From the IMG/VR virus record IMGVR_UViG_3300031087_000514: a stretch of DNA of 64,000 nucleotides, one strand, 5' to 3'. Position 1 is the first letter of the stretch. Each line of letters begins with the position of its first letter. The translations under genes were made by a program, and so were the position numbers. The DNA is from a virus. Lineage: Duplodnaviria > Heunggongvirae > Uroviricota > Caudoviricetes. The notes beneath the pieces were generated by a model. That model made no database searches. It was not told the DNA's origin and saw only the letters and a program-made list of their open reading frames with translations. Of this stretch, positions 5,544 to 60,035 are shown piece after piece.

Positions 5544-5556
5544 GTAAAACGTTATA

Positions 5557-5600
5557 GAAAATGGCAGAACCTGTAAATTCAGGTTCTGCCATTTTCTATA
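5557..5600. terminator. bidirectional terminator
   Basis: 18-bp stem agaaaatggcagaacctg/caggttctgccattttct. Confidence 0.8.
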
Positions 5601-5613
5601 AACTGTATCGTTA

Positions 5614-6194
5614 TCAACGTCTACGTGGTGTACGCCGAGTTCTTCTCCGAGACTTCACTCTGGTTGACTCAGCGGCGAAGGCTCTCCATGCGAAGTATTT
5701 CATCATAGTAGGAGGGAACGGTTCAGGGTTTGGATTTGACCGGCATTTCTTCACAACAGTAATAACGCCATTATCGTACTCCCAAAGCCCACATCCCTCA
5801 GGTATTTCTTCAGGAGTGAGCAAACCTTTCGGAGTTAAGTACACAAATCTGTTCACAACAGATTTCCATGCTCGTCTTTTATCTTCGGTATCACGCCGAA
5901 AATCCGCTTTGGAAACTTTCATTTCAATAGCAGTGATAGCTTGACCTTCAAACATGAGGAAGTCAATTCGTCGTGTGAGTTTCGCATCCTGCCAGTTGTA
6001 TCCATCAGGAACCTCAGCATCGTAATCAAGCCCTGACTTGTCATAAATGCGCTTCATTCGTGGGTTACTCAACGCATGGGCAGCTCGGGAAAGTCTTTCA
6101 GCATGTAAATCAGGCATTGTTACTTCTGTAAGAATAGCTGCTTTGTTATGTTTCGCGCGAAGTGCTGCGTAGAAAATCTCTTCTTGTTCTCTCA
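5614..6194 (-). CDS. putative PD-(D/E)xK-family nuclease-like protein (MmcB-like)
   Basis: D...E-x-K pattern (IDFLMFEGQAITAIEMKVSKADF); Arg-rich C-terminal tail; start chosen at ATG (MREQEE) downstream of the terminator of the preceding gene. Confidence 0.4.
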
Positions 6195-6198
6195 TTAA

Positions 6199-6243
6199 CC
6201 TAAAAATCCCGATAGTTGCGTATACTCTCAACTATCGGGATTT
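6199..6243 (-). terminator. rho-independent terminator for minus-strand gene 6257..6883
   Basis: 15-bp stem aaatcccgatagttg/caactatcgggattt; U-run on minus strand (plus taaaaa). Confidence 0.7.
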
Positions 6244-7282: not shown

Positions 7283-7742
7283 ACTCAGTGCGAGTTGTGC
7301 TTTCTTTCCACACATTGAAAGGACTTACAGCATTTTCAATTCTCAGATGCTCAGCAACATCTCCAGCTGCAAGCTTCTCGTAGAACGCTGCGTCATCAAA
7401 GCCAGCATCAGCTGCATCATGGCGGTCAGCAGCGAACACAATGCGGTCAACACGTGACCACAATGCAGCGCCTAAGCACATGGGACATGGCTCACAGGAA
7501 GAGTACAGAATGCATCCTTCCAGACTAAACGTTTCCAACTGACGGCATGCTTCACGAATAGTATTCACTTCTGCATGCGCAGTCGGGTCATTCGTTGTCG
7601 TAACCGAATTACCGCAAGCGATTACTTTGCCAGACGGAGTGACAATAACTGCTCCGAACGGCCCACCATTACCTGAATAGACGTTATCCATTGCGATACG
7701 AATAGCAAGCTGGATGTAGTAACCATCGTAGTCGTCATTCAT
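7278..7742 (-). CDS. CDA-fold nucleoside/nucleotide deaminase (TadA/guanine deaminase-like)
   Basis: HAE ... PCxMC zinc-binding motifs; start ATG overlaps the ligase stop as ATGAATGA (alternative in-frame ATG at 7766). Confidence 0.65.
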   Translation of the reverse strand: MNDDYDGYYIQLAIRIAMDNVYSGNGGPFGAVIVTPSGKVIACGNSVTTTNDPTAHAEVNTIREACRQLETFSLEGCILYSSCEPCPMCLGAALWSRVDRIVFAADRHDAADAGFDDAAFYEKLAAGDVAEHLRIENAVSPFNVWKESTTRTEY

Positions 7743-8865
7743 TGTCATCACTCTCCACTTTGCCATTCAGGTTCCAGAAAGGCTTTTCAAACTCGGGCTG
7801 GATAAGCTTCCAGATGCTGTCAGAAATCTTCTTCTCAGAAGACTCATTGTAGTGACCACCGCTATGACGGCTGAACAGCATACCTACAAGCTTCTTATCC
7901 TGCTGCTGCACTGCAAAAGCATAGTCCTTCTGAGTGAAGTCATCAGGAAGAGAAGTAATTACGCTGTTATACGTGTTCTCTACTTCCTCACGCAGAGCAG
8001 CGAACTCTGCCAGAAGGTTGTCACGGGTGCGCTCAACGAAGTCAATGAACTCCTCAGGAAGGTCCTTCAACCAGCTGTCAAAGTCGTTACCACTGACAAG
8101 CATCTCCCAGATACGACGTGAAGATGCGCCAGTGATGATGCGATGAAGCTGAACGTAGTCGGCCTGCTTAATCTTCACACGAGTGTCAGTGTTCAGGAAG
8201 TGCACAACCAGACCCTCAGCGTTCTCACGCGGAGTTGCAGCAAGCGCCTCAGCAAGGTTCGTGTACTGGAACTGCTCAACCTTGTTCCACTTCCACTCAT
8301 CAATCTGAGATGCAGGCTCGCTGATACCAGTCTCAATGTTTACACGGGCAATCAGGATAAGGTCATCCATCTCACCATAGTTCAGCACAATACGGTTGGT
8401 CGGGTAGATAATCTCCCAAATGTACGTGTAGCCCTCAGCAGGCTCCCACTGACCGTCATACAGCTCCAAGTAACGCGCTGTTGCATGCTGAGCCTGCTCA
8501 GAAGCAAAGGAACCACGAGTGGAGATGTTCAGCGTGCCATCAGGAGTGCGGTAAGAGATACCCATGCTACCGTCAGCCTTATCGGAGACAACAGCAGGGC
8601 CAGTCAGAAGAGCCTGGTCAACATCAGGCTCGTTGTGGTTGAAGAACTTACCCAGAGGACGGGAAACAATTTCCTTTGTCTCAGCGTCAACAATAAGACC
8701 ACGTGCTGCCAAAGTTGCAGGGTTCCAAGCGCGCTCAAACTGAGCGACCTGTGAGTAGTCGTAAATCTCCAACGGCAGAGTAGGGTGTACCTGCTTATTG
8801 ATGTGCTTTGCTGCGAATGCTGCATCCCACATTTCCTTTGGAGCAATGTCATAGATAGTTGACAT
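7735..8865 (-). CDS. RNA ligase (nucleotidyltransferase superfamily)
   Basis: Motif I KADGS, downstream EGhVhK-like motifs; paralog of 18503..19741. Confidence 0.7.
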   Translation of the reverse strand: MSTIYDIAPKEMWDAAFAAKHINKQVHPTLPLEIYDYSQVAQFERAWNPATLAARGLIVDAETKEIVSRPLGKFFNHNEPDVDQALLTGPAVVSDKADGSMGISYRTPDGTLNISTRGSFASEQAQHATARYLELYDGQWEPAEGYTYIWEIIYPTNRIVLNYGEMDDLILIARVNIETGISEPASQIDEWKWNKVEQFQYTNLAEALAATPRENAEGLVVHFLNTDTRVKIKQADYVQLHRIITGASSRRIWEMLVSGNDFDSWLKDLPEEFIDFVERTRDNLLAEFAALREEVENTYNSVITSLPDDFTQKDYAFAVQQQDKKLVGMLFSRHSGGHYNESSEKKISDSIWKLIQPEFEKPFWNLNGKVESDDNE

Positions 8866-8959: not shown

Positions 8960-9046
8960 CTTTGACAATGCCTGAACTGATATACTTTAGTAGCAGTAGT
9001 GATGTGACAATATTGTCACATTGGCCTCATGCAACAATATTGTCAC
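8960..9046. promoter_or_regulatory. divergent intergenic region with repeated palindromic operator-like sites
   Basis: Perfect 16-bp palindrome GTGACAATATTGTCAC at 9004-9019, second copy gcaACAATATTGTCAC at 9032-9046, half-site TTGACAATG at 8962-8970. Confidence 0.4.
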
Positions 9047-9070
9047 TTGCAACCTATTGGAAAGGCTATC

Positions 9071-9562
9071 ATGTCCTTAGCAGAAGATGAACGAACACAA
9101 CGATCCCGCGAAGCTGCCAGAGAGCGTTCTCGAGCGAAATCGATAAAGTTTGCAAAGATGAATGCAGAGGCTCGTCGTCTTTCGCAGGAAATGCCAGAAG
9201 AAGGATTGCCTCTCAGTATTTGGGCAGAAGAAATCAAACGGCGTTCAGGAGAACACGAGTACATTCTTCACATCCTTCATAATCTTGAAGGGGAAGTTCA
9301 TTACTCTTTGTCTAATGTTACAAGACTTCCAGGCTTGCAAAGCGCAGACCCTCAGTATCTTTCAGAATACACGCCTTACTCCATCCCTGAGAGTGTTGAA
9401 CTTGACGAAGAAGTACTACGCCAGTACAATAAGTGGTCAATACTGAATACTCAGCGTGCATATGCTACACAAGCTTACATCCAGTCACAGCTTGATTCAG
9501 GAAACGAGATTCTCGTACGTAAGCCTGACGGAACAGTCGAAGTAGTTCGGTTTTCCTCATGA
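9071..9562 (+). CDS. hypothetical protein
   Basis: GGAAAGG RBS; Arg/Glu-rich N-terminus. Confidence 0.5.
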   Translation: MSLAEDERTQRSREAARERSRAKSIKFAKMNAEARRLSQEMPEEGLPLSIWAEEIKRRSGEHEYILHILHNLEGEVHYSLSNVTRLPGLQSADPQYLSEYTPYSIPESVELDEEVLRQYNKWSILNTQRAYATQAYIQSQLDSGNEILVRKPDGTVEVVRFSS

Positions 9563-17777: not shown

Positions 17778-18444
17778 TTGAAGCAAGGCGTTGAAGGAGT
17801 TCAGGTTTGTTCACATTTGTGAAACCTGAACTCCTTTGCTTTTCCCAGATAGAGTTCAATTGGTTCACCACAGTTTCAGTAGGGATGCGTGTTTTGTTGA
17901 GAAGAAGAAAGTTTGTGTTCACACTACGGTCAGTTCCACCAACACCAGCTTTACCTGCATTGCGCCCAGTTCTTTGTACGAAAAAATCAGAATGAGCTGT
18001 GCAGAAGTAGAATCCTTTCACCCTGTTGACAAGTTCAACAGAGCGAGTATCTTCTTGGTATGACCATAGTTGGAAAAGCTCTTCGCTGTACTTCCACGAT
18101 TTGGTTAAATGTAGATGCGGATGCACCTTGCTTAACAAGGAAGGGCGATCAAAAGTCTTAGGGAGAAGAAAAGCAACTGCGTCAGCGAATTCAGCTGCAT
18201 GTTTGAAGTACTTGATCGTGGTGTGATGATGTGCAAGCTTTGGTGGTTCACCTAAGACTAATGTTTTTGCATCATCTCTGACCCATGTATTTCTGAGAAA
18301 ATCAAGAGGTTCAGGTACCCAAATTTCAGCATCAGGGAAGAAAGGTTTGTCATAACTGACATCAATAATGCGATCATAGTCTGCAATGTGAATACGGCTG
18401 AGACCTTCTTCTGGGTCCCATTGCTCAATGGGTTGTAAGTTCAT
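17731..18444 (-). CDS. hypothetical protein
   Basis: Start set at MNLQPIEQ (AAGGA RBS) rather than the longer ORF. Confidence 0.5.
   Translation of the reverse strand: MNLQPIEQWDPEEGLSRIHIADYDRIIDVSYDKPFFPDAEIWVPEPLDFLRNTWVRDDAKTLVLGEPPKLAHHHTTIKYFKHAAEFADAVAFLLPKTFDRPSLLSKVHPHLHLTKSWKYSEELFQLWSYQEDTRSVELVNRVKGFYFCTAHSDFFVQRTGRNAGKAGVGGTDRSVNTNFLLLNKTRIPTETVVNQLNSIWEKQRSSGFTNVNKPELLQRLASITEQLHSTSYEEQGT
17794..17846. terminator. hairpin terminator
   Basis: 15-bp stem aaggagttcaggttt/aaacctgaactcctt followed by tgcttttcc. Confidence 0.7.
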
Positions 18445-18502
18445 CGTTTCGTATCCTTTTTCACATGCGTTTCGTAACTTCTTCTTCGTTAGATATATCA
18501 GC

Positions 18503-19741
18503 ATGACTACCACTCGTAAACCACCTTATTTGCATGCTGACGGTTCAAATTGTTGGACAAAGCATTGCTCCCGCCGCACCAAGGAAAGCAATGATCGTGC
18601 TTCCTTCTTCAAGCAGGTTGAAAAGACCCCAGCTGCGAAGCTTCCTACCAACCTTCCTCCACTGTCAGCGTTCCAGAAAGCTCACGCTGAGGGCCGTATT
18701 GAGAAGTCTGAACACCCAAATTACCCTTACGTGACCTACAAATACGCGCGTACTACGCAGTTCGCTTCTGACTGGGATGATGTCACACTTGCTTCTCGTG
18801 GAATCATCTTTAACAAGGAAACCGGAGAAGTTGTTGCACGTCCATTTGCAAAGTTCTTCAACTACAATGAACCTTCCGTGCCTACTGATAAACTTCATGG
18901 TCGTGTGAGCGTCACTGACAAACTTGATGGTTCATTAGGTATTGGTTACGTTGATGAGGACGGTAAGTTCAACATTGCTACTTCTGGTAGCTTTATCTCT
19001 GAACAGTCTAAACATGCTACTCGTATATACCAAGAGAAGTATGAAGGTAAGTGGAATCCAAATCCAAACATGACATACATGTGGGAAATCATTTACCCTG
19101 AGAACCGTGTTGTTGTCAACTATGGCGATGAGGACGACTTGCACCTTATCGGTGCTGTCAATAAGCGCACTGGTAAGAGCGTCCCATTAGGTGATATCAA
19201 AGAGTGGAAGTGGAAGCGTGCAGAAGAGTACAAGAATATTTCTTCTCTTGACTCTGTACTTGCCACTCCTGACCGTGAGAACCGTGAAGGTTTCATTGTC
19301 CACTACATTGATACTGACACTCGCGTAAAGTACAAGCATGAGCAGTACTTGAACATTCACCGTGTTGCTACTGGTGTTACTTCTAAGACTATCTGGCGCA
19401 AGATGTCTTTGGGTGAAGATATGGACAGCTGGAAGAGTGGAATTCCTGAGGAGTTCACTGACTTCATTTCTGAACGTCAGAACAAAATTCGCGCAAACTA
19501 CGATAATGAAGTCAGTAAAGTTGTTGCTGACCACGCGAAGTTCAAAGCTTCTATGCCTGCTTCATATGAACGTAAAGACTTCGCTGTTACATTGAAGAAT
19601 TCTTCTGTAGTTCCAGCTGAGAATAAACCATTCATTATGAATTATGAATTCAACGGTAAAGTAGCAACAAACGAGGTGCAAGCTCGTAAAATTTGGGAGC
19701 GCATCAAGCCTACCGATGAGGATACTTTCTGGAACATGTAA
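18503..19741 (+). CDS. RNA ligase paralog with about 60-aa N-terminal extension
   Basis: Motif I KLDGS; homologous to 7735..8865 from residue about 60; GTTAG box at 18488 (N10 spacing) supports the 18503 ATG. Confidence 0.7.
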   Translation: MTTTRKPPYLHADGSNCWTKHCSRRTKESNDRASFFKQVEKTPAAKLPTNLPPLSAFQKAHAEGRIEKSEHPNYPYVTYKYARTTQFASDWDDVTLASRGIIFNKETGEVVARPFAKFFNYNEPSVPTDKLHGRVSVTDKLDGSLGIGYVDEDGKFNIATSGSFISEQSKHATRIYQEKYEGKWNPNPNMTYMWEIIYPENRVVVNYGDEDDLHLIGAVNKRTGKSVPLGDIKEWKWKRAEEYKNISSLDSVLATPDRENREGFIVHYIDTDTRVKYKHEQYLNIHRVATGVTSKTIWRKMSLGEDMDSWKSGIPEEFTDFISERQNKIRANYDNEVSKVVADHAKFKASMPASYERKDFAVTLKNSSVVPAENKPFIMNYEFNGKVATNEVQARKIWERIKPTDEDTFWNM

Positions 19742-23352: not shown

Positions 23353-23946
23353 ATGTTCGCTGTACTCACCGCCTTAGGCTTATCTGTTTCCGCAGGACTC
23401 AACGCGTACCTGCCGTTACTTGCTGTTGGTCTTCTCACCAAATACACTGATGTGTTTCAGCTTCCCAACGGATGGTCCTGGCTGAATCAAGATTGGGTGC
23501 TGATTCTATTCGGGTTACTTGCATTAGCTGAGTTTGTCGCAGATAAAGTTCCAGCGATTGACACATTCAACGACATTATTCAAACAGTAGTACGCCCTTC
23601 ATCAGGAGGTGTCGTATTTGCAGTAGGAATAGGTTCACATACTACTCCTATCACAAATTGGGATGCGTTCATTCATTCACAAGCGTTTCCTAGCATTGTT
23701 GTAGGTGTGGTGATTGCATTGATTCCACATTTGATGAAGATGCTCATCCGTCCAGTCTTAAATGCAACAACTGCTGGGTTAGCTACCCCGTTAGTGAGTT
23801 TCGGTGAAGATGTCATTTCGGTAGCATTGATTGCATTATCCATTTTCCTTCCTATCCTTGTCCCAGTAGCAGTAGTGCTACTCTTCATCATCGCTGTACG
23901 AGTTATCAAACGGTTGCGTAGTAGGACGCAGGTGCAAACAGCATAA
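23353..23946 (+). CDS. polytopic membrane protein
   Basis: 4-5 hydrophobic segments. Confidence 0.5.
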   Translation: MFAVLTALGLSVSAGLNAYLPLLAVGLLTKYTDVFQLPNGWSWLNQDWVLILFGLLALAEFVADKVPAIDTFNDIIQTVVRPSSGGVVFAVGIGSHTTPITNWDAFIHSQAFPSIVVGVVIALIPHLMKMLIRPVLNATTAGLATPLVSFGEDVISVALIALSIFLPILVPVAVVLLFIIAVRVIKRLRSRTQVQTA

Positions 23947-23996
23947 GAGCATGTCAAGCTAAAAATCCAGAGACCTGTAAATACCACGGCTATGCT

Positions 23997-24617
23997 GTGT
24001 ATGAGCAAAAACGGAATATGCAATCTCCTTCATGGACTACAGAAGAATCTTATGATTTCTTGACGATGCATGGAGTAAATCTTCTTCCTCTTGGAACAGT
24101 GAAGAAGTGGAACTCAGAGCAGGATTATAAAGCATCATTCTATGAAGTTGAAAATGAATTAACTGGATTATTCTCTGGTGGTGGGAGTGGTGAAGAGAAG
24201 ATAGCTCTTATCGACAAAGACCTTCCTTTTGTTGTGAAATTCGCTGGAGACCCAGATTACCAGAATGGTGCAGATGGATTATCCTCCACCTTCCAAGAGT
24301 ATGCCGCAAGCCGCGATGGTTTGAACGGTCAGGATGTAATGGCAAGAACTGAACTATTCTGGCATAAGAATGGTTTCCCTATTATTGTTCAAGAAAAGCT
24401 GACCCACTTGACCCGTAGAGTGATAACAGAGCTTGCTGAGCAATTGCCCTGGTTGCCGAAATCTTTCCACTCGTATGCTCAGATAGGACAAAATGGTTCT
24501 GGTAAATGGCGTATTTACGATTTGGATGCGGGAACGCTTATGGACTTCTACCCTGAAGAAACAGGTCAGAAAGTTCTTGACCAAGTATGGGATGAGTTTT
24601 TCCAATTGAAGAAATAG
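23997..24617 (+). CDS. hypothetical protein; family Cys motif (ACQAKNPETCKYHG) encoded in frame upstream at 23949-23990 without any start codon
   Basis: Only a GTG at 23997 is available; in-frame upstream codons encode the conserved motif but contain no ATG/GTG/TTG. Confidence 0.45.
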   Translation: MYEQKRNMQSPSWTTEESYDFLTMHGVNLLPLGTVKKWNSEQDYKASFYEVENELTGLFSGGGSGEEKIALIDKDLPFVVKFAGDPDYQNGADGLSSTFQEYAASRDGLNGQDVMARTELFWHKNGFPIIVQEKLTHLTRRVITELAEQLPWLPKSFHSYAQIGQNGSGKWRIYDLDAGTLMDFYPEETGQKVLDQVWDEFFQLKK

Positions 24618-26628: not shown

Positions 26629-27405
26629 ATGAGTTATATTAGTCTGAGTACACGAGAAAACGAAACCATCGCCTACGGCACAGGATCAGATAGGGCGAAT
26701 TTTAGCTTTCTTGCTGAGCGAATGTTCGTAGGATTGTTTGCTATGGACGACCCGTATATCTGGGAGAAGATTGCTCCTCACGTCAAAAATGACCCATATG
26801 TGGACAAACGAACTGCGCTCATGAATGATATCAAAGGGTACAGTTTTGAAAGTTCAGTTTTGCATGTGGATGGAGAGCCTATTGACCTGTTTACTGCAAA
26901 ATTGAATACAGCTCTTCGATACGGTTCTGATGCGATGAAGCTTGCTGCTCGCCTGCATGGGCAAAGCGAACTACATTGTTGGGTTGCGGGTAAAAACCGT
27001 GCATGTCTTGCTGACATCATGGAAAATGCTCCAACCACAGTATTCCGCGTCAATACTGAAACAGGTGAAAGCTACTGGAAACCCATCATTGATGCTCTCC
27101 GTGAAACAGATGAAGGGGATGCGGTTTTCTCCTATTCCGTTAGTTCTGGCTTCCCTCTTGTTCAATACGATAAGAAGTTCCTTGCTTCGTTGAAAGAAAT
27201 TGAAGATGAAGAAGATTACGACGAAGGAGAAGCGCGATATCTGTGGAATGAGAAACCTCTTGAAGAACGCTGGGAGAATACCATTGAAGTGTTCAAAGAG
27301 GAAACAGAGTCGCAAATGTTAGAGCTGACTCCTGATAATTGGGACTCGTACTACTTTGGTCAAGGCGCAGATGCTTTGAGCATCCTTGAAAAACTGGGTG
27401 TTTAA
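26629..27405 (+). CDS. hypothetical protein
   Basis: ORF 258 aa. Confidence 0.5.
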   Translation: MSYISLSTRENETIAYGTGSDRANFSFLAERMFVGLFAMDDPYIWEKIAPHVKNDPYVDKRTALMNDIKGYSFESSVLHVDGEPIDLFTAKLNTALRYGSDAMKLAARLHGQSELHCWVAGKNRACLADIMENAPTTVFRVNTETGESYWKPIIDALRETDEGDAVFSYSVSSGFPLVQYDKKFLASLKEIEDEEDYDEGEARYLWNEKPLEERWENTIEVFKEETESQMLELTPDNWDSYYFGQGADALSILEKLGV

Positions 27406-33799: not shown

Positions 33800-33836
33800 C
33801 CTTGACAAAGAAAGCATTGCTTGCTACTATAACCCT

Positions 33837-34424
33837 ATGATTATGACTATGCAGGATGCTTTCGGAGGCGCACTTCCCTACGGGAAGCACCTTGATGAGC
33901 CTTCTAAGACAATTGATAGCAACCTCTTTGCACAGAAACTGTATGAAGAGGTTGCTATCATTCTTGAATCGTATCGAATCGCACTTCCTGACCTTGACAT
34001 TACCTTCAATACTGAGGAAGGTAGCGAGGTTCTGGACGCTACTTTGCAGCGCACGTATGCGTACCGTGATGACATCACAAATCATCTCCGTCTCGCTCGT
34101 AAGGACTTGGAGAAGACCCAGCGCGAACTTGGCCAGGCTTTGGAGTCCAAGAATCCGAACTTCAAACGTATTGAGGCGCTTACAGCTACACTTGTGGAGC
34201 AGCAGGATTTCCAGCACCAGATTTACGTGAATGCGCATATCCCTCTGCTACTTGAGAAGCTGTTACAGGCTATCCAGTACGGCTATAACGAGAGTACAGT
34301 TGAGGGATGGGCATGGACTGCTCGAACCATTTTCAGGGCCTCTCTGAGCCTTACAGGGTCAAACGCACTGTACTCCCGTGTCCTTATCTGGACACATAAA
34401 GAGCTTCTGGAAGACGCAAAGTAG
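33837..34424 (+). CDS. hypothetical protein
   Basis: ATG chosen over the upstream TTG that lies inside the preceding gene. Confidence 0.45.
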   Translation: MIMTMQDAFGGALPYGKHLDEPSKTIDSNLFAQKLYEEVAIILESYRIALPDLDITFNTEEGSEVLDATLQRTYAYRDDITNHLRLARKDLEKTQRELGQALESKNPNFKRIEALTATLVEQQDFQHQIYVNAHIPLLLEKLLQAIQYGYNESTVEGWAWTARTIFRASLSLTGSNALYSRVLIWTHKELLEDAK

Positions 34425-34426
34425 CA

Positions 34427-34699
34427 ATGCGGATTCATGAAGGCAAGTCTCCTCTTGCGAATGGCATTGAAACGGCAGAAGACTTAGATGCTTATATGCA
34501 TTGGCGGTTGGAGATTGCAGCTCAGCGGTTAGCTGAAGTCTTACGTTGTCTCCCTAAGGAGTATATTACAGCTGACGAAGATGGTGTCAGTTCTAACCTG
34601 CATAACCTCATCGGTGATATGAGTAACTTAGCCAGTTGTGTTCGTTTGGGTCCTTCCATGCGAAAGTTGCCGCGGACGAATACTGATATAACCGAATAA
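34427..34699 (+). CDS. hypothetical protein
   Basis: ORF 90 aa. Confidence 0.4.
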   Translation: MRIHEGKSPLANGIETAEDLDAYMHWRLEIAAQRLAEVLRCLPKEYITADEDGVSSNLHNLIGDMSNLASCVRLGPSMRKLPRTNTDITE

Positions 34700-34709
34700 A
34701 TTTTACTCA

Positions 34710-34764
34710 CCTTTGCTCATGTTCTATATTTATCTACCAGTTAGATATAGAACATGAGCAAAGG
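34710..34764 (+). promoter_or_regulatory. 20-bp perfect inverted repeat sequestering the GTTAG box and start codon of the ART gene
   Basis: cctttgctcatgttctatat / atatagaacatgagcaaagg with 15-nt loop; ATG 34754 lies in the 3' arm; no U-run. Confidence 0.5.
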
Positions 34765-35662
34765 CATTAAACAAGCAGATGGAACACTCTGTTACGCAAA
34801 GAATCCAGATACCTGCAAAAACCATGGATCACCGTCACCTTTTGATCTTTTCGAAGCTGCGATGGCGAAAAAGGATATTGGTGGAAGACTCAATGCGCAA
34901 GTGATGTACAAAAAACACATGCATACCCAATTAGCTGCTCAGTTCCAAAATAACAAGCCTGCCGCAACACAGGTAATTTCGGGTTTTAGGGATTACAGTT
35001 CGCAGTCAGTAGAAGCATTGAAGGAATACAATGAAGAATATCAACAAGCTTCTACTAACTGGTCAGATGACCAAAGAACTGCAATCAAAGACTATACAGG
35101 TTTGAGCTACAAGAATGTAAATGAGTTCCTTCGTAATAAAGAGGAATGGTTAGAAAAAGCTACACCTCAATACAAAGATAAGATGGTAGCACATGTTAAT
35201 GAAGTAATTGAGCAGCTTGATTCTGTCATGGATCAGACATCTAATACGAAATCAAGAACTGTGTATAGAAATGTCTCACAAGACACTACGAAGGCTTTCA
35301 CGTCTTCTGAGGAGTTTGCTCATCGTAATGGCTGGGTTGAAGGTAAAGAGGTAGAATTTCCTTCTTATCTTTCAACATCCTACGACCCACACTACATGGC
35401 TCATCAGCTTGGACAGGATGAAAGCGAGCATACAGATGTTGTATTCGTAATGGAAACGAACAAGGGAGTTCCTGTTGATATGACTGCATTAGATGCCAAA
35501 GGTCACACGTATGTGCAAGACGCAGAGCGGGAGATTCTTCTTCCTCGCAGTATGCGTTTCAGGGTCAGTAAAGTAACTCGCAGTGTTGGTTTTGAACCCT
35601 ATGAAGAAAACAACAATAGTAGAGCTGTTTTCCCTCTGACTGTGTATCTTGAAGAGCTGTAG
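34754..35662 (+). CDS. ADP-ribosyltransferase (R-S-E class), third paralog
   Basis: VYRNVS, YLSTSY, QDAEREILLPR motifs; N-term CYAKNPDTCKNHG; GTTAG box 34740-34753. Confidence 0.7.
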   Translation: MSKGIKQADGTLCYAKNPDTCKNHGSPSPFDLFEAAMAKKDIGGRLNAQVMYKKHMHTQLAAQFQNNKPAATQVISGFRDYSSQSVEALKEYNEEYQQASTNWSDDQRTAIKDYTGLSYKNVNEFLRNKEEWLEKATPQYKDKMVAHVNEVIEQLDSVMDQTSNTKSRTVYRNVSQDTTKAFTSSEEFAHRNGWVEGKEVEFPSYLSTSYDPHYMAHQLGQDESEHTDVVFVMETNKGVPVDMTALDAKGHTYVQDAEREILLPRSMRFRVSKVTRSVGFEPYEENNNSRAVFPLTVYLEEL

Positions 35663-35676
35663 ACATCTCCTTTAAT

Positions 35677-35730
35677 CAAAAGCGGGTTGACTACTCACAT
35701 AAGTAGTCAACCCGCTTTTCTATATTATTT
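35677..35730. terminator. bidirectional terminator
   Basis: 18-bp stem aaaagcgggttgactact/agtagtcaacccgctttt. Confidence 0.8.
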
Positions 35731-47637: not shown

Positions 47638-47644
47638 GCATCTC

Positions 47645-47715
47645 AGCATGTCTTCACTATACTTGACAACTCCAATAACTCTGTGGTATAGTGAAGACAT
47701 GCTGAATGTTTGACA
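47645..47715. terminator. 18-bp inverted repeat (terminator-like, long loop)
   Basis: cagcatgtcttcactata / tatagtgaagacatgctg. Confidence 0.5.
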
Positions 47716-49814: not shown

Positions 49815-49870
49815 TGAACACATGTGGGAGCAACTAAAGCTATACAGTTGCTCCCACATGTGTTATAGTA
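49815..49870. terminator. hairpin terminator
   Basis: 19-bp stem gaacacatgtgggagcaact/agttgctcccacatgtgtt. Confidence 0.65.
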
Positions 49871-50395: not shown

Positions 50396-51211
50396 ATGGC
50401 GTTGTTCTCTCGGAAACATAAATGCAAAGCAGCTAACCCTGCTGCTTGCACTGATCCTCGTTGCCCAGATAAGAAAGTTCTTTTGCAAGCCTTTGAATCA
50501 GCTTTATCAGAAGGCGATTACCAGAAGATGTTCAACGCAAGGGACGAGATGGAAAAATTCAAGCCTATCTCCATTACTCCTGCGAGAACTCCTGAGGACT
50601 GGGACACGCTTCTTGTCAAGTCAGATGAGAACGAGTATAAAACTGTCAGCATTATGCCAAAGAAGCAAGCTGCTTCCTATGATACCAGTGTCATTCCTCA
50701 GTTCGATTCTTTCTCCGCCATTCAGGAGTACTTTTCCAAGGATAAGAATGTCTTGTTGAAATTGAAAAATTTGGATGAGCAGATGCCAGAAGCACAATGT
50801 ATCTCTCTGAGAGAGTTCTATGTTTCGCCTGCATTGAGAGGGCAAGGAGTCGGCAAATGGATTCTCAATATCATCACAAAGCATGCTGATGACCATGGAG
50901 CTATTCTCTTTTTGACTCCTACCTCGTCAGGTGACAATAAGCTTTCACCTGACCACGTGGATTATGTAAAACGTGCAGTTCAGCATCGTTCTCGTATCAC
51001 AGACTTCTACTCCAAGCATGGTTTCCAACAAAATCCTTTCTGGTTTCCTTGGGGTGGCAAAGATGAACTCACAAACGAACCATGGAATCCTGACAAGCAG
51101 GCTCAAACCCAATTCTCAGAGACCGCAAAAAACTATTTGAGCAACTACACTGTCGCCCAAATGATGAGAAAGCCAGCAGCGGGTTGGCCAAAGCCCTGGG
51201 TAACCCGCTAA
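50396..51211 (+). CDS. GNAT-family acetyltransferase with N-terminal C-x7-C-x-DPRCP motif
   Basis: RGQGVGKWIL motif A; N-term CKAANPAACTDPRCP; GTTAG box 50382-50395. Confidence 0.55.
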   Translation: MALFSRKHKCKAANPAACTDPRCPDKKVLLQAFESALSEGDYQKMFNARDEMEKFKPISITPARTPEDWDTLLVKSDENEYKTVSIMPKKQAASYDTSVIPQFDSFSAIQEYFSKDKNVLLKLKNLDEQMPEAQCISLREFYVSPALRGQGVGKWILNIITKHADDHGAILFLTPTSSGDNKLSPDHVDYVKRAVQHRSRITDFYSKHGFQQNPFWFPWGGKDELTNEPWNPDKQAQTQFSETAKNYLSNYTVAQMMRKPAAGWPKPWVTR

Positions 51212-59978: not shown

Positions 59979-59989
59979 ATCAAGATAAC

Positions 59990-60035
59990 GAAGAAGCTGA
60001 CTGGTATGAAATACGCCAGTCAGCTTCTTCGCGTT
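59990..60035 (+). terminator. hairpin terminator
   Basis: 15-bp stem gaagaagctgactgg/ccagtcagcttcttc. Confidence 0.55.

Follow-up and report, generated by a model that had tools for sequence, protein, structure and literature searches.

In bacteriophage T4, a hairpin that hides a translation start was reportedly described by McPheeters et al. in 1986, and hairpins processed by RNase III are known from the early region of phage T7, from the N leader and sib of phage lambda, and from Bacillus phage SP82. In the T4 genes e (lysozyme), soc, 49, and I-TevI, the hairpin hides the start on early read-through RNA, and a late promoter lies inside the hairpin DNA (PMC3014915). The T4-type phages also carry PeSLs, which are composite terminator/promoter cassettes (PMC2839356, PMC4122927). 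In this study, we analyzed a hairpin at positions 34710–34764 of a 64,000-nucleotide stretch of viral DNA (IMG/VR record IMGVR_UViG_3300031087_000514; hereafter, the window), which encloses the start codon of ART3, the third of three ADP-ribosyltransferase (ART) genes in the window. Comparison of the window with its relatives leads us to prefer, tentatively, a reading in which the hairpin insulates ART3 from read-through transcription, a phage strategy known from the four T4 genes named above. Relatives are given by lineage label (L001 and so on) only where they need to be told apart.

A Hairpin Over the Start Codon of ART3

The 5' arm, CCTTTGCTCATGTTCTATAT (34710–34729, plus strand), and the 3' arm, ATATAGAACATGAGCAAAGG (34745–34764, plus strand), are exact reverse complements and form a perfect 20-bp inverted repeat with the arms 15 nt apart, as a first-pass annotation of this DNA had reported. 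The 5' arm is a non-coding "anti-start" sequence that begins 11 nt past the stop codon of an upstream gene of 90 amino acids (aa), while the 3' arm holds the second half of a GTTAG-containing box (see below), the ATG, and codons 2–4 of ART3. The nominal 15-nt loop (34730–34744, plus strand) of that annotation is correct as the spacing between the perfect arms, but pairing continues inside it, because 34730–34735 pairs imperfectly with 34739–34744 and leaves only the apical loop ACC at 34736–34738. The extended arms of 26 nt (34710–34735 and 34739–34764) are 92% complementary, with 24 pairs closing this 3-nt apical loop. RNA folding, which the annotation had proposed as a check, gave a minimum free energy of -34.9 kcal/mol (z = -8.54), and none of 200 shuffled sequences was as stable; the corresponding DNA fold was -21 kcal/mol (z = -10.8). 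The stem also has the length expected of an RNase III substrate, i.e., at least 20 bp of near-perfect double-stranded RNA (about two turns), with 20 perfect pairs in the window and 29 in L012.

The ATG at 34754–34756 sits in the 3' arm and is paired to 34718–34720. When RNAs with different 5' ends were folded, the pairing probability of the AUG was 1.0 in those with a 5' end at or before 34710, whereas the AUG was mostly unpaired (0.02–0.5 per base) in those with a 5' end at or after 34730. Among the 55 gene starts compared, opening the ART3 start region (-18 to +10) costs 29.3 kcal/mol, and the next highest cost at any credible start is 15.8 kcal/mol. The helix therefore covers the AUG in the manner of a start-sequestering structure. 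One higher value, 29.7 kcal/mol at a TTG "start" at 6231, was set aside, since this start is doubtful and lies inside a terminator. The earlier statement that the hairpin occludes both the GTTAG box and the ATG holds in full for the ATG and for most of the box; GTTAG itself (34740–34744) is partly paired (G-C, U.U, U-A, A-U, and G.U in order), and the ATATAG half of the box lies inside the perfect stem.

ART3 (34754–35662, plus strand) encodes a 302-aa ADP-ribosyltransferase of the Alt-like or exoenzyme type, which matched PF03496 (E = 3e-19) and the "Alt-like" PHROG 802 (E = 5.7e-9). Its N-terminus, MSKGIKQxDGTxCYAKNP, is kept in ART3 homologues down to 39% identity, and in-frame TAG codons stand 2 and 4 codons before the ATG; on both grounds, we take the ATG at 34754 to be the real start. 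The homologues, at 95%, 89%, 88%, 55%, and 39% identity, were found on metagenomic contigs of 0.78–0.88 Mb. No close DNA or protein relative was found among GenBank phages with megablast and with tblastn using ART3, and no ART3 relative was found in IMG/VR.

The other two ART genes, ART1 (602–1630) and ART2 (1661–2692), also match PF03496, and neither has a comparable hairpin, in line with the first-pass annotation; opening the start costs 14.4 kcal/mol at ART2 and less at ART1, compared with 29.3 kcal/mol at ART3. At 1630–1661, a 9-bp stem of UUAUCCCUG with UUAGGGAUA can form between the final codons of ART1 and the box of ART2; this is a much weaker echo of the arrangement at ART3.

Conservation of the Hairpin

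The hairpin is kept in all ART3 lineages of 88–100% identity. In L016, it is the same as in the window (-34.9 kcal/mol). A single C.A mismatch at stem position 13 is found in L019 (-30.6 kcal/mol) and recurs in L001–8 and L004, L001–8 having a U.G closing pair as well (-27 to -28.7 kcal/mol), and L011 has one C.A mismatch near the loop (-31 kcal/mol). The most stable form is that of L012/L013 (-41.7 kcal/mol), which has two compensatory pair swaps and extra pairs. Here, adjacent pairs are swapped on both sides (5' CT to TC with 3' AG to GA), three outer pairs are gained, one of them through a synonymous change of GGC to GGT, and a U.U apposition has become G.U; the segment equivalent to 34730–34744 of the window is fully paired, including two G.U pairs. 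The number of pairs changed on both sides, two, was equalled in 12 of 500 shuffles.

The 3' arm is invariant in five of the six lineages compared, the exception being the AG-to-GA swap of L012/L013. The 5' arm, which codes for nothing, is identical to that of the window at 18/20 positions in L012 and 19/20 in L011, compared with an identity of 0.61 at the 4-fold sites of ART3 (binomial estimates, P ~0.005 and ~7e-4, respectively). Because the identity of the arm is far above that of the 4-fold sites, we infer that the 5' arm is under purifying selection, and its sole evident property is its complementarity to the ART3 start.

These data bear on the notion that the hairpin has no function, i.e., that it is a near-palindrome that arose when the ART3 start was duplicated in inverted orientation and that template-switch repair has kept symmetric. 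The 5' arm and its side of the loop do match 26 nt of the start region in inverted orientation, with 2 mismatches, and the arm-to-arm compensation amounts to one adjacent-dinucleotide event. However, the 5' arm has been retained across ~39% divergence at 4-fold sites, the stem was independently extended in L012, and a purposeless block of the AUG as strong as this at a conserved gene would be expected to be purged by selection, so we consider this explanation extremely unlikely.

The presence of the hairpin depends on the gene upstream. Every lineage with a co-directional upstream gene has it (L001–8, L011–13, L016, and L019). The 55% clade (L009, L010, L017, L018, L020, and L021) and the 39% homologue (L014) have an upstream neighbour oriented the other way; they carry the box and the MSKG start, and the hairpin is absent. 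Because these homologues retain the box and MSKG without the hairpin, its occurrence appears to correlate with co-directional upstream transcription and not with the ART as such, on the strength of one or two independent evolutionary contrasts. A link between silencing and the toxicity of the ART, as first proposed, finds no support in this distribution.

The Operon Upstream of ART3

The first gene of the upstream operon encodes a protein of 195 aa (33837–34424, plus strand), which had no match in Pfam or PHROG and is found only in this clade, where all relatives are at least 81% identical. A predicted promoter of the sigma-70/sigma-A type precedes it (33802–33830, plus strand; TTGACA-17-TGcTACTAT), and the ATG of this gene follows the -10 element after 6 nt. 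Five lineages share the hexamers, the TG, and both spacings but differ freely in the sequence of the spacer and of the 6-nt segment. This is the pattern predicted for a sigma-70/sigma-A promoter that starts transcription at the ATG and would give a leaderless mRNA. The same layout, TGaTATAGT-6 nt-ATG, occurs at 26629.

The second gene, of 90 aa (34427–34699, plus strand), follows the stop codon of the 195-aa gene and precedes the 5' arm. It is present in the window, L004, L011, L016, and L019, and absent from L001–3, L005–8, L012, and L013. Comparison with L001 (2937–2956) showed that the gain or loss is exact, running from the stop (TAGCA) of the 195-aa gene to the point where the 5' arm begins, and similarity to the relatives that lack the gene resumes at the first base of this arm. 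The hairpin travels with ART3. To the left of the 90-aa gene, we found no partner element matching the hairpin, and the terminator scan detected no terminator-like site between the 33802 promoter and the hairpin. In the window and its relatives, the upstream stop codon is located 10–20 nt before the stem, which, given the footprint sizes of ribosomes, should be beyond the reach of a terminating ribosome.

The GTTAG Box

The box of ART3, GTTAGATAT (34740–34748, plus strand), conforms to the consensus G-W-T-A-G-R-W-A-T. The word GWTAG occurs exactly at -14 of 11 gene starts, where ~0.1 would be expected from its 197 occurrences in 128 kb (both strands). These GWTAGRWAT-type boxes are at 588, 1647, 4588, 12895, 23339, 34740, 36794, 41354 (minus strand), 42184, 50382, and 60033. 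The word also occurs at -10 to -18 of approximately six further genes, with additional boxes of this type at 18488, 51235, 52741, 6895 (minus strand), and 4056. The in-frame TAG of the box forms codon -4. Most of the genes with a box have no Shine-Dalgarno sequence, and a few have a weak GGGA or AGGA inside the box, whereas most of the genes without a box have a Firmicutes-style AGAAAGGAG-type Shine-Dalgarno sequence at -15 to -9. The pattern TAnnnT also peaks at -12 (6 genes), and G-14, T-12, and A-11 of the box align with the TGnTA of the conserved extended -10 element at 33802–33830.

The first-pass annotation had treated GTTAG as a translational leader box. Because of its fixed position at -14, the general lack of a Shine-Dalgarno sequence, and its alignment with the extended -10 element, the box is instead probably a -10-like promoter element for leaderless mRNA, possibly recognized by a phage-modified polymerase, and less probably a ribosome-binding signal. 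If the box is a promoter, the mRNA of ART3 itself would lack the 5' arm. One other promoter candidate near the hairpin was rejected. A sigma-70-like TTTACT-17-TATATT (34702–34730), which would start transcription in the loop, scored 9/12, a level reached about as often as expected by chance (12 found vs. 11.6 expected), and its -35 element is not conserved in L001 or L012. The late promoters of SPO1 contain the words CGTTAGA(N17–19)GATATT as separated -35 and -10 elements (PMC3601020); these words resemble cGTTAGATAT of the window, but the architecture differs, and we regard the resemblance as a lead only.

The leaderless layout bears directly on the role suggested for the hairpin in the first place, that of a standing translational repressor in the mRNA of ART3 itself. 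Such a role would call for every ART3 transcript to belong to the upstream operon or to begin before 34710, and for a trans-acting factor such as a helicase, an RNase, temperature, or a phage protein to open or cut the hairpin. The start is completely occluded, selection acts on the hairpin, and translation of the upstream gene, which stops 10–20 nt before the stem, would be unable to open it, all of which would suit a repressor. However, the position of the box and the leaderless layout favour a start inside the stem, and the ART3 homologues into which no upstream transcription reads do without the hairpin. No Rfam family matched the hairpin at its gathering score, and the only matches were to generic microRNA-precursor hairpins at 20–30 bits, compared with cut-offs of 56–117; among the riboswitch, thermometer, and leader families of Rfam, no curated covariance model matched. 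With its -35 to -42 kcal/mol and its A+T-rich top, the stem does not resemble a thermometer either. Both the repressor itself and the transcription pattern that it calls for are therefore, in our judgement, quite improbable.

A function of the palindrome in DNA was considered as well, in the form of a cruciform (the A+T-rich centre favours extrusion), a symmetric protein site for the ART3 promoter, or a divergent promoter pair. The minus strand of the 5' arm reads GATAAATATAGAACATG, which is box-like, and this minus-strand copy matches the 14-mer GTTAGATATAGAAC with 2 mismatches. The DNA hairpin is itself exceptional (-21 kcal/mol, z = -10.8), RNA folding showed no consistent strand preference, and the genome has palindromic operator-like sites, e.g., at 9004–9046. 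A device of this kind is nevertheless hard to reconcile with conservation and compensation that cover the whole 20–29 bp and not a short half-site, with sense-strand G.U pairs in L001 and L012 that are mismatches in DNA, or with a tolerated C.A mismatch. Nor would a device acting purely at the promoter need a co-directional upstream gene, and we think it very unlikely that the DNA-level role is the explanation.

Other Hairpins of the Window and the Terminator Question

At least 20 long hairpins were detected in the window, mostly perfect and of 15–24 bp, and nearly all of them begin 5–20 nt after a stop codon. Since perfect hairpins of 16–24 bp are common in the window, length alone does not single out the ART3 hairpin. 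About half of the long hairpins are canonical intrinsic terminators, often bidirectional, with A- and T-tracts. The ART3 hairpin begins 11 nt after a stop codon (TAA, 34697–34699) and is the only one of them that lies over a credible gene start. Its 12-nt tail contains 2 T residues, the fewest among the 20 long hairpins, and has no U-tract; its stem is richer in G+C at the base and A+T-rich at the top, opposite to the polarity of the canonical terminators in the window; and the terminator scan of the window did not call it. It is thus the least terminator-like of the 20 long hairpins, and the earlier view that it is not a simple terminator holds.

The resemblance in position to the other hairpins nonetheless makes it possible, if on balance unlikely, that the ART3 hairpin is in essence a gene-end element (a phage-polymerase terminator, a structure that protects mRNA 3' ends, or an RNase III-type processing site) that has become fused to the next promoter, like a PeSL, the AUG being buried as a side effect of the leaderless layout. 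This explanation overlaps with the insulation model and differs from it in that the burial of the AUG is incidental. It would account for the distance of 11 nt from the stop codon, which is within the 5–20 nt range of nearly all 20 long hairpins, and for the absence of the hairpin where the upstream gene is divergent. Two other hairpins, at 47643–47705 and 49817–49864, carry promoter elements, and a third, at 59989–60031, adjoins a GTTAG box, from which it is separated by 1 nt. The ART3 hairpin is also located at the border of a gene that is present or absent among relatives, as PeSLs are (PMC4122927), and the gene-end hairpins of this lineage likewise evolve by compensation. On the other hand, all of the other gene-end hairpins are wholly intergenic, and the ART3 hairpin is the least terminator-like among them (2/12 T in the tail, reversed G+C polarity). 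In L012/L013, the stem grew in both directions, over the whole box and one more codon, which points to the start region as its target. The sequence of the ART3 hairpin is unique and not that of a repeated cassette (the arm sequence has no second copy in the window, and a scan of IMG/VR with the 5' arm gave only single-strand chance matches), and no counterpart of it flanks the 90-aa gene on the left.

Several of the other hairpins deserve mention in their own right. Downstream of ART3, a canonical bidirectional intrinsic terminator (35678–35719, unstranded) has an 18-bp stem with an A-tract and a T-tract. In L001, L004, and L011, it is replaced by an unrelated 21-bp hairpin, which shows a compensatory change of C-G to U-A in L011 and a G.U intermediate in L004; the gene-end hairpins of this lineage turn over yet stay paired. 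In the hairpin at 47643–47705, the loop contains TTGACA and the 3' arm TGgTATAGT, and TGtTATAGT straddles the 3' edge of the hairpin at 49817–49864. The hairpins at 47643–47705 and 49817–49869 are perfect gene-end hairpins of 19–20 bp and look like composite terminator/promoter modules. A hairpin with an "ATG" at 5552–5601 was considered as a second case of a buried start and rejected; it is a bidirectional terminator between convergent genes, and the open reading frame (ORF) at 5561–5944 is probably spurious.

Proposed Insulation of ART3 from Read-Through Transcription

The explanation that we favour, although with limited confidence, is insulation. In this model, transcripts of the upstream operon from the 33802–33830 promoter would run through the 195-aa and 90-aa genes into ART3. 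On such read-through RNA, the 5' arm would pair with the ART3 start, from about -15 to +11, and lock the AUG in a duplex of approximately -35 kcal/mol, so that ART3 would not be translated from it. A double-strand-specific RNase (RNase III-like) might plausibly act on the duplex of 23–29 bp as well, and the read-through RNA may be cut. ART3 would be expressed from its own promoter-like box, where the loop meets the 3' arm, and transcripts initiated there would have their 5' end at the AUG or slightly ahead of it, with little or no leader, without the 5' arm, and with the AUG free. The timing of the two promoters may differ, the read-through RNA being the early one. T4 produces its own ART, Alt, late in infection and packages it into the virion, and by analogy, late-only production of the ART is plausible here. 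The translational silencing that the first-pass annotation proposed is thus borne out insofar as the AUG is sequestered in RNAs that start at or before 34710, but most likely concerns read-through transcripts only. A transcription start inside or downstream of the 5' arm had been named as grounds for rejecting a role of the hairpin; the same arrangement is used by T4 e, soc, 49, and I-TevI (PMC3014915).

A number of observations weigh against the insulation model. Judged by how wobble pairs differ between the strands, sense-strand RNA does not fold consistently better than antisense RNA, and a role in DNA or as antisense RNA may be involved; a stability of -35 kcal/mol far exceeds what is needed to block initiation. 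The C.A mismatch is tolerated in the subclade of L001–8, L004, and L019. The compensatory change is a single event in one lineage, and template switching within a near-palindrome at replication could also give such a change. If the ART3 mRNA is leaderless, its AUG, without a Shine-Dalgarno sequence, would be poorly used on read-through RNA anyway, and the occlusion would be partly redundant. The box occupies the position of the Shine-Dalgarno sequence of other genes, and the variants TAGGAG and TAGGGGA could act as one; other junctions in the window between a gene with a Shine-Dalgarno sequence and a gene with a box have no such hairpin. Finally, differential RNA sequencing (dRNA-seq) of phiKZ reported no leaderless transcripts (PMC8244752), and jumbo phages give no precedent for the leaderless reading.

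A broader proposal, which we put forward as doubtful, is that many genes of this ~0.88-Mb phage-like genome would be expressed as leaderless mRNAs from a new -35-less promoter, G-W-T-A-G-R-W-A-T, that ends 5–6 nt before the ATG, and that long perfect promoter-containing hairpins would serve as insulators that silence, and perhaps trigger the cleavage of, read-through RNA from operons of the host polymerase, with ART3 as the clearest case. As an extension of this proposal, the palindrome might also work in DNA, as a cruciform or a divergent-promoter switch. The probable leaderless, promoter-at-ATG expression and the new -10-like motif are a by-product of more interest than the hairpin itself. 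They would improve the calling of gene starts and the assignment of expression classes in unculturable huge phages, and they would also offer a concrete, testable handle on the timing of Alt-like ART production.

Gene Starts and Genome Context

Some of the predicted gene starts in the window are doubtful. An RNA ligase ORF probably begins at the box-led ATG at 18503 and not at 18428, and the pipeline placed a start at 50528 although a box-led ATG is present at 50396; gene finders may systematically miss box-led, leaderless starts. An N-terminal Cys/His motif, C-x-AK-(N/H)-P-(D/E)-T-C-x-x-H-G, is present in ART3 (34754), in an HD-domain protein (42198), and in a stretch at ~23952, and the motif CSKxxxxxCRLHNP is found in the N-termini of ART1 (602) and ART2 (1661). 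Four of the five proteins with a Cys/His motif are encoded by box-led genes, and the shared motif may be a zinc knuckle or a targeting tag. At 23947–23999, the stretch that encodes the motif (...IRACQAKNPETCKYHGYA) precedes the first canonical start (GTG, 23997) of the ORF at 23997–24617, and it is in a frame other than that of the ORF at 23353–23946. This layout points to a gene that has decayed, is frameshifted, or uses an unusual start codon.

A 16-bp palindrome, GTGACAATATTGTCAC, occurs twice, at 9004–9019 and, in an imperfect copy, at 9031–9046, 27 bp apart. The two copies lie between the divergent genes at 7735–8865 (minus strand) and 9029–9562 (plus strand), the second copy overlapping the ATG, and look like repressor operators.

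The window is part of an 880,603-bp metagenomic contig (ENA ERZ27247428, k141_538707; L015 and L022), and its relatives are on contigs of 828, 789, and 782 kb. In comparison, the phage genome record cited in the literature is 735 kb (PMC7162821). The genes of the window include Hsp70, ClpC, two RNA ligases, two polynucleotide kinases, a CCA/poly(A) polymerase, NAD synthase, GyrB, a DNA methylase, and the three ARTs. This content resembles that of a huge phage, and we infer the phage identity of the genome from it. No structural genes were recognized among the ORFs tested in the window, and no tRNAs were found in the window. Matches of the ClpC-like protein in GenBank were not taken as a sign of phage kinship, since they are generic (~48% identity to Firmicutes-type ClpC).

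Comparison with Known Systems

Compared with the intrinsic terminators, the ART3 hairpin is likewise located shortly past a stop codon, but differs from them in lacking a U-tract and in its A+T-rich top and G+C-richer base. With the RNase III processing hairpins, it shares a position between genes of a co-directional operon, a stem of at least 20 bp, and the absence of a U-tract. The T7 sites differ in having internal loops and in lying outside start codons.

The similarity to the PeSLs lies in the combination of a stem-loop with a promoter (here putative) in a short intergenic module at a boundary of gene gain and loss. PeSLs are, however, repeated and conserved in sequence and flank mobile genes on both sides, whereas the ART3 hairpin is unique and found on one side only, and its stem overlaps a coding start.

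The closest counterparts are the hairpins of T4 e, soc, 49, and I-TevI. In both cases, another transcription unit precedes the gene whose start region is paired in the stem, a short -35-less promoter-like element (here putative) lies within the hairpin DNA, and transcripts begun in the hairpin would lack the 5' strand and be translatable. The product is also an ART in the case of T4 Alt. The differences are that the stem at ART3 is much longer and perfect (20–29 bp, -27 to -42 kcal/mol), that its putative promoter is GWTAGRWAT and not TATAAATA, and that its layout implies a leaderless mRNA without a Shine-Dalgarno sequence. Moreover, the genome of ART3 is a ~0.88-Mb phage-like element unrelated to T4. 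If the likeness is real, one of the largest phage-like genomes on record would use the device of T4, in which a gene is hidden on early read-through RNA and freed by its own promoter.

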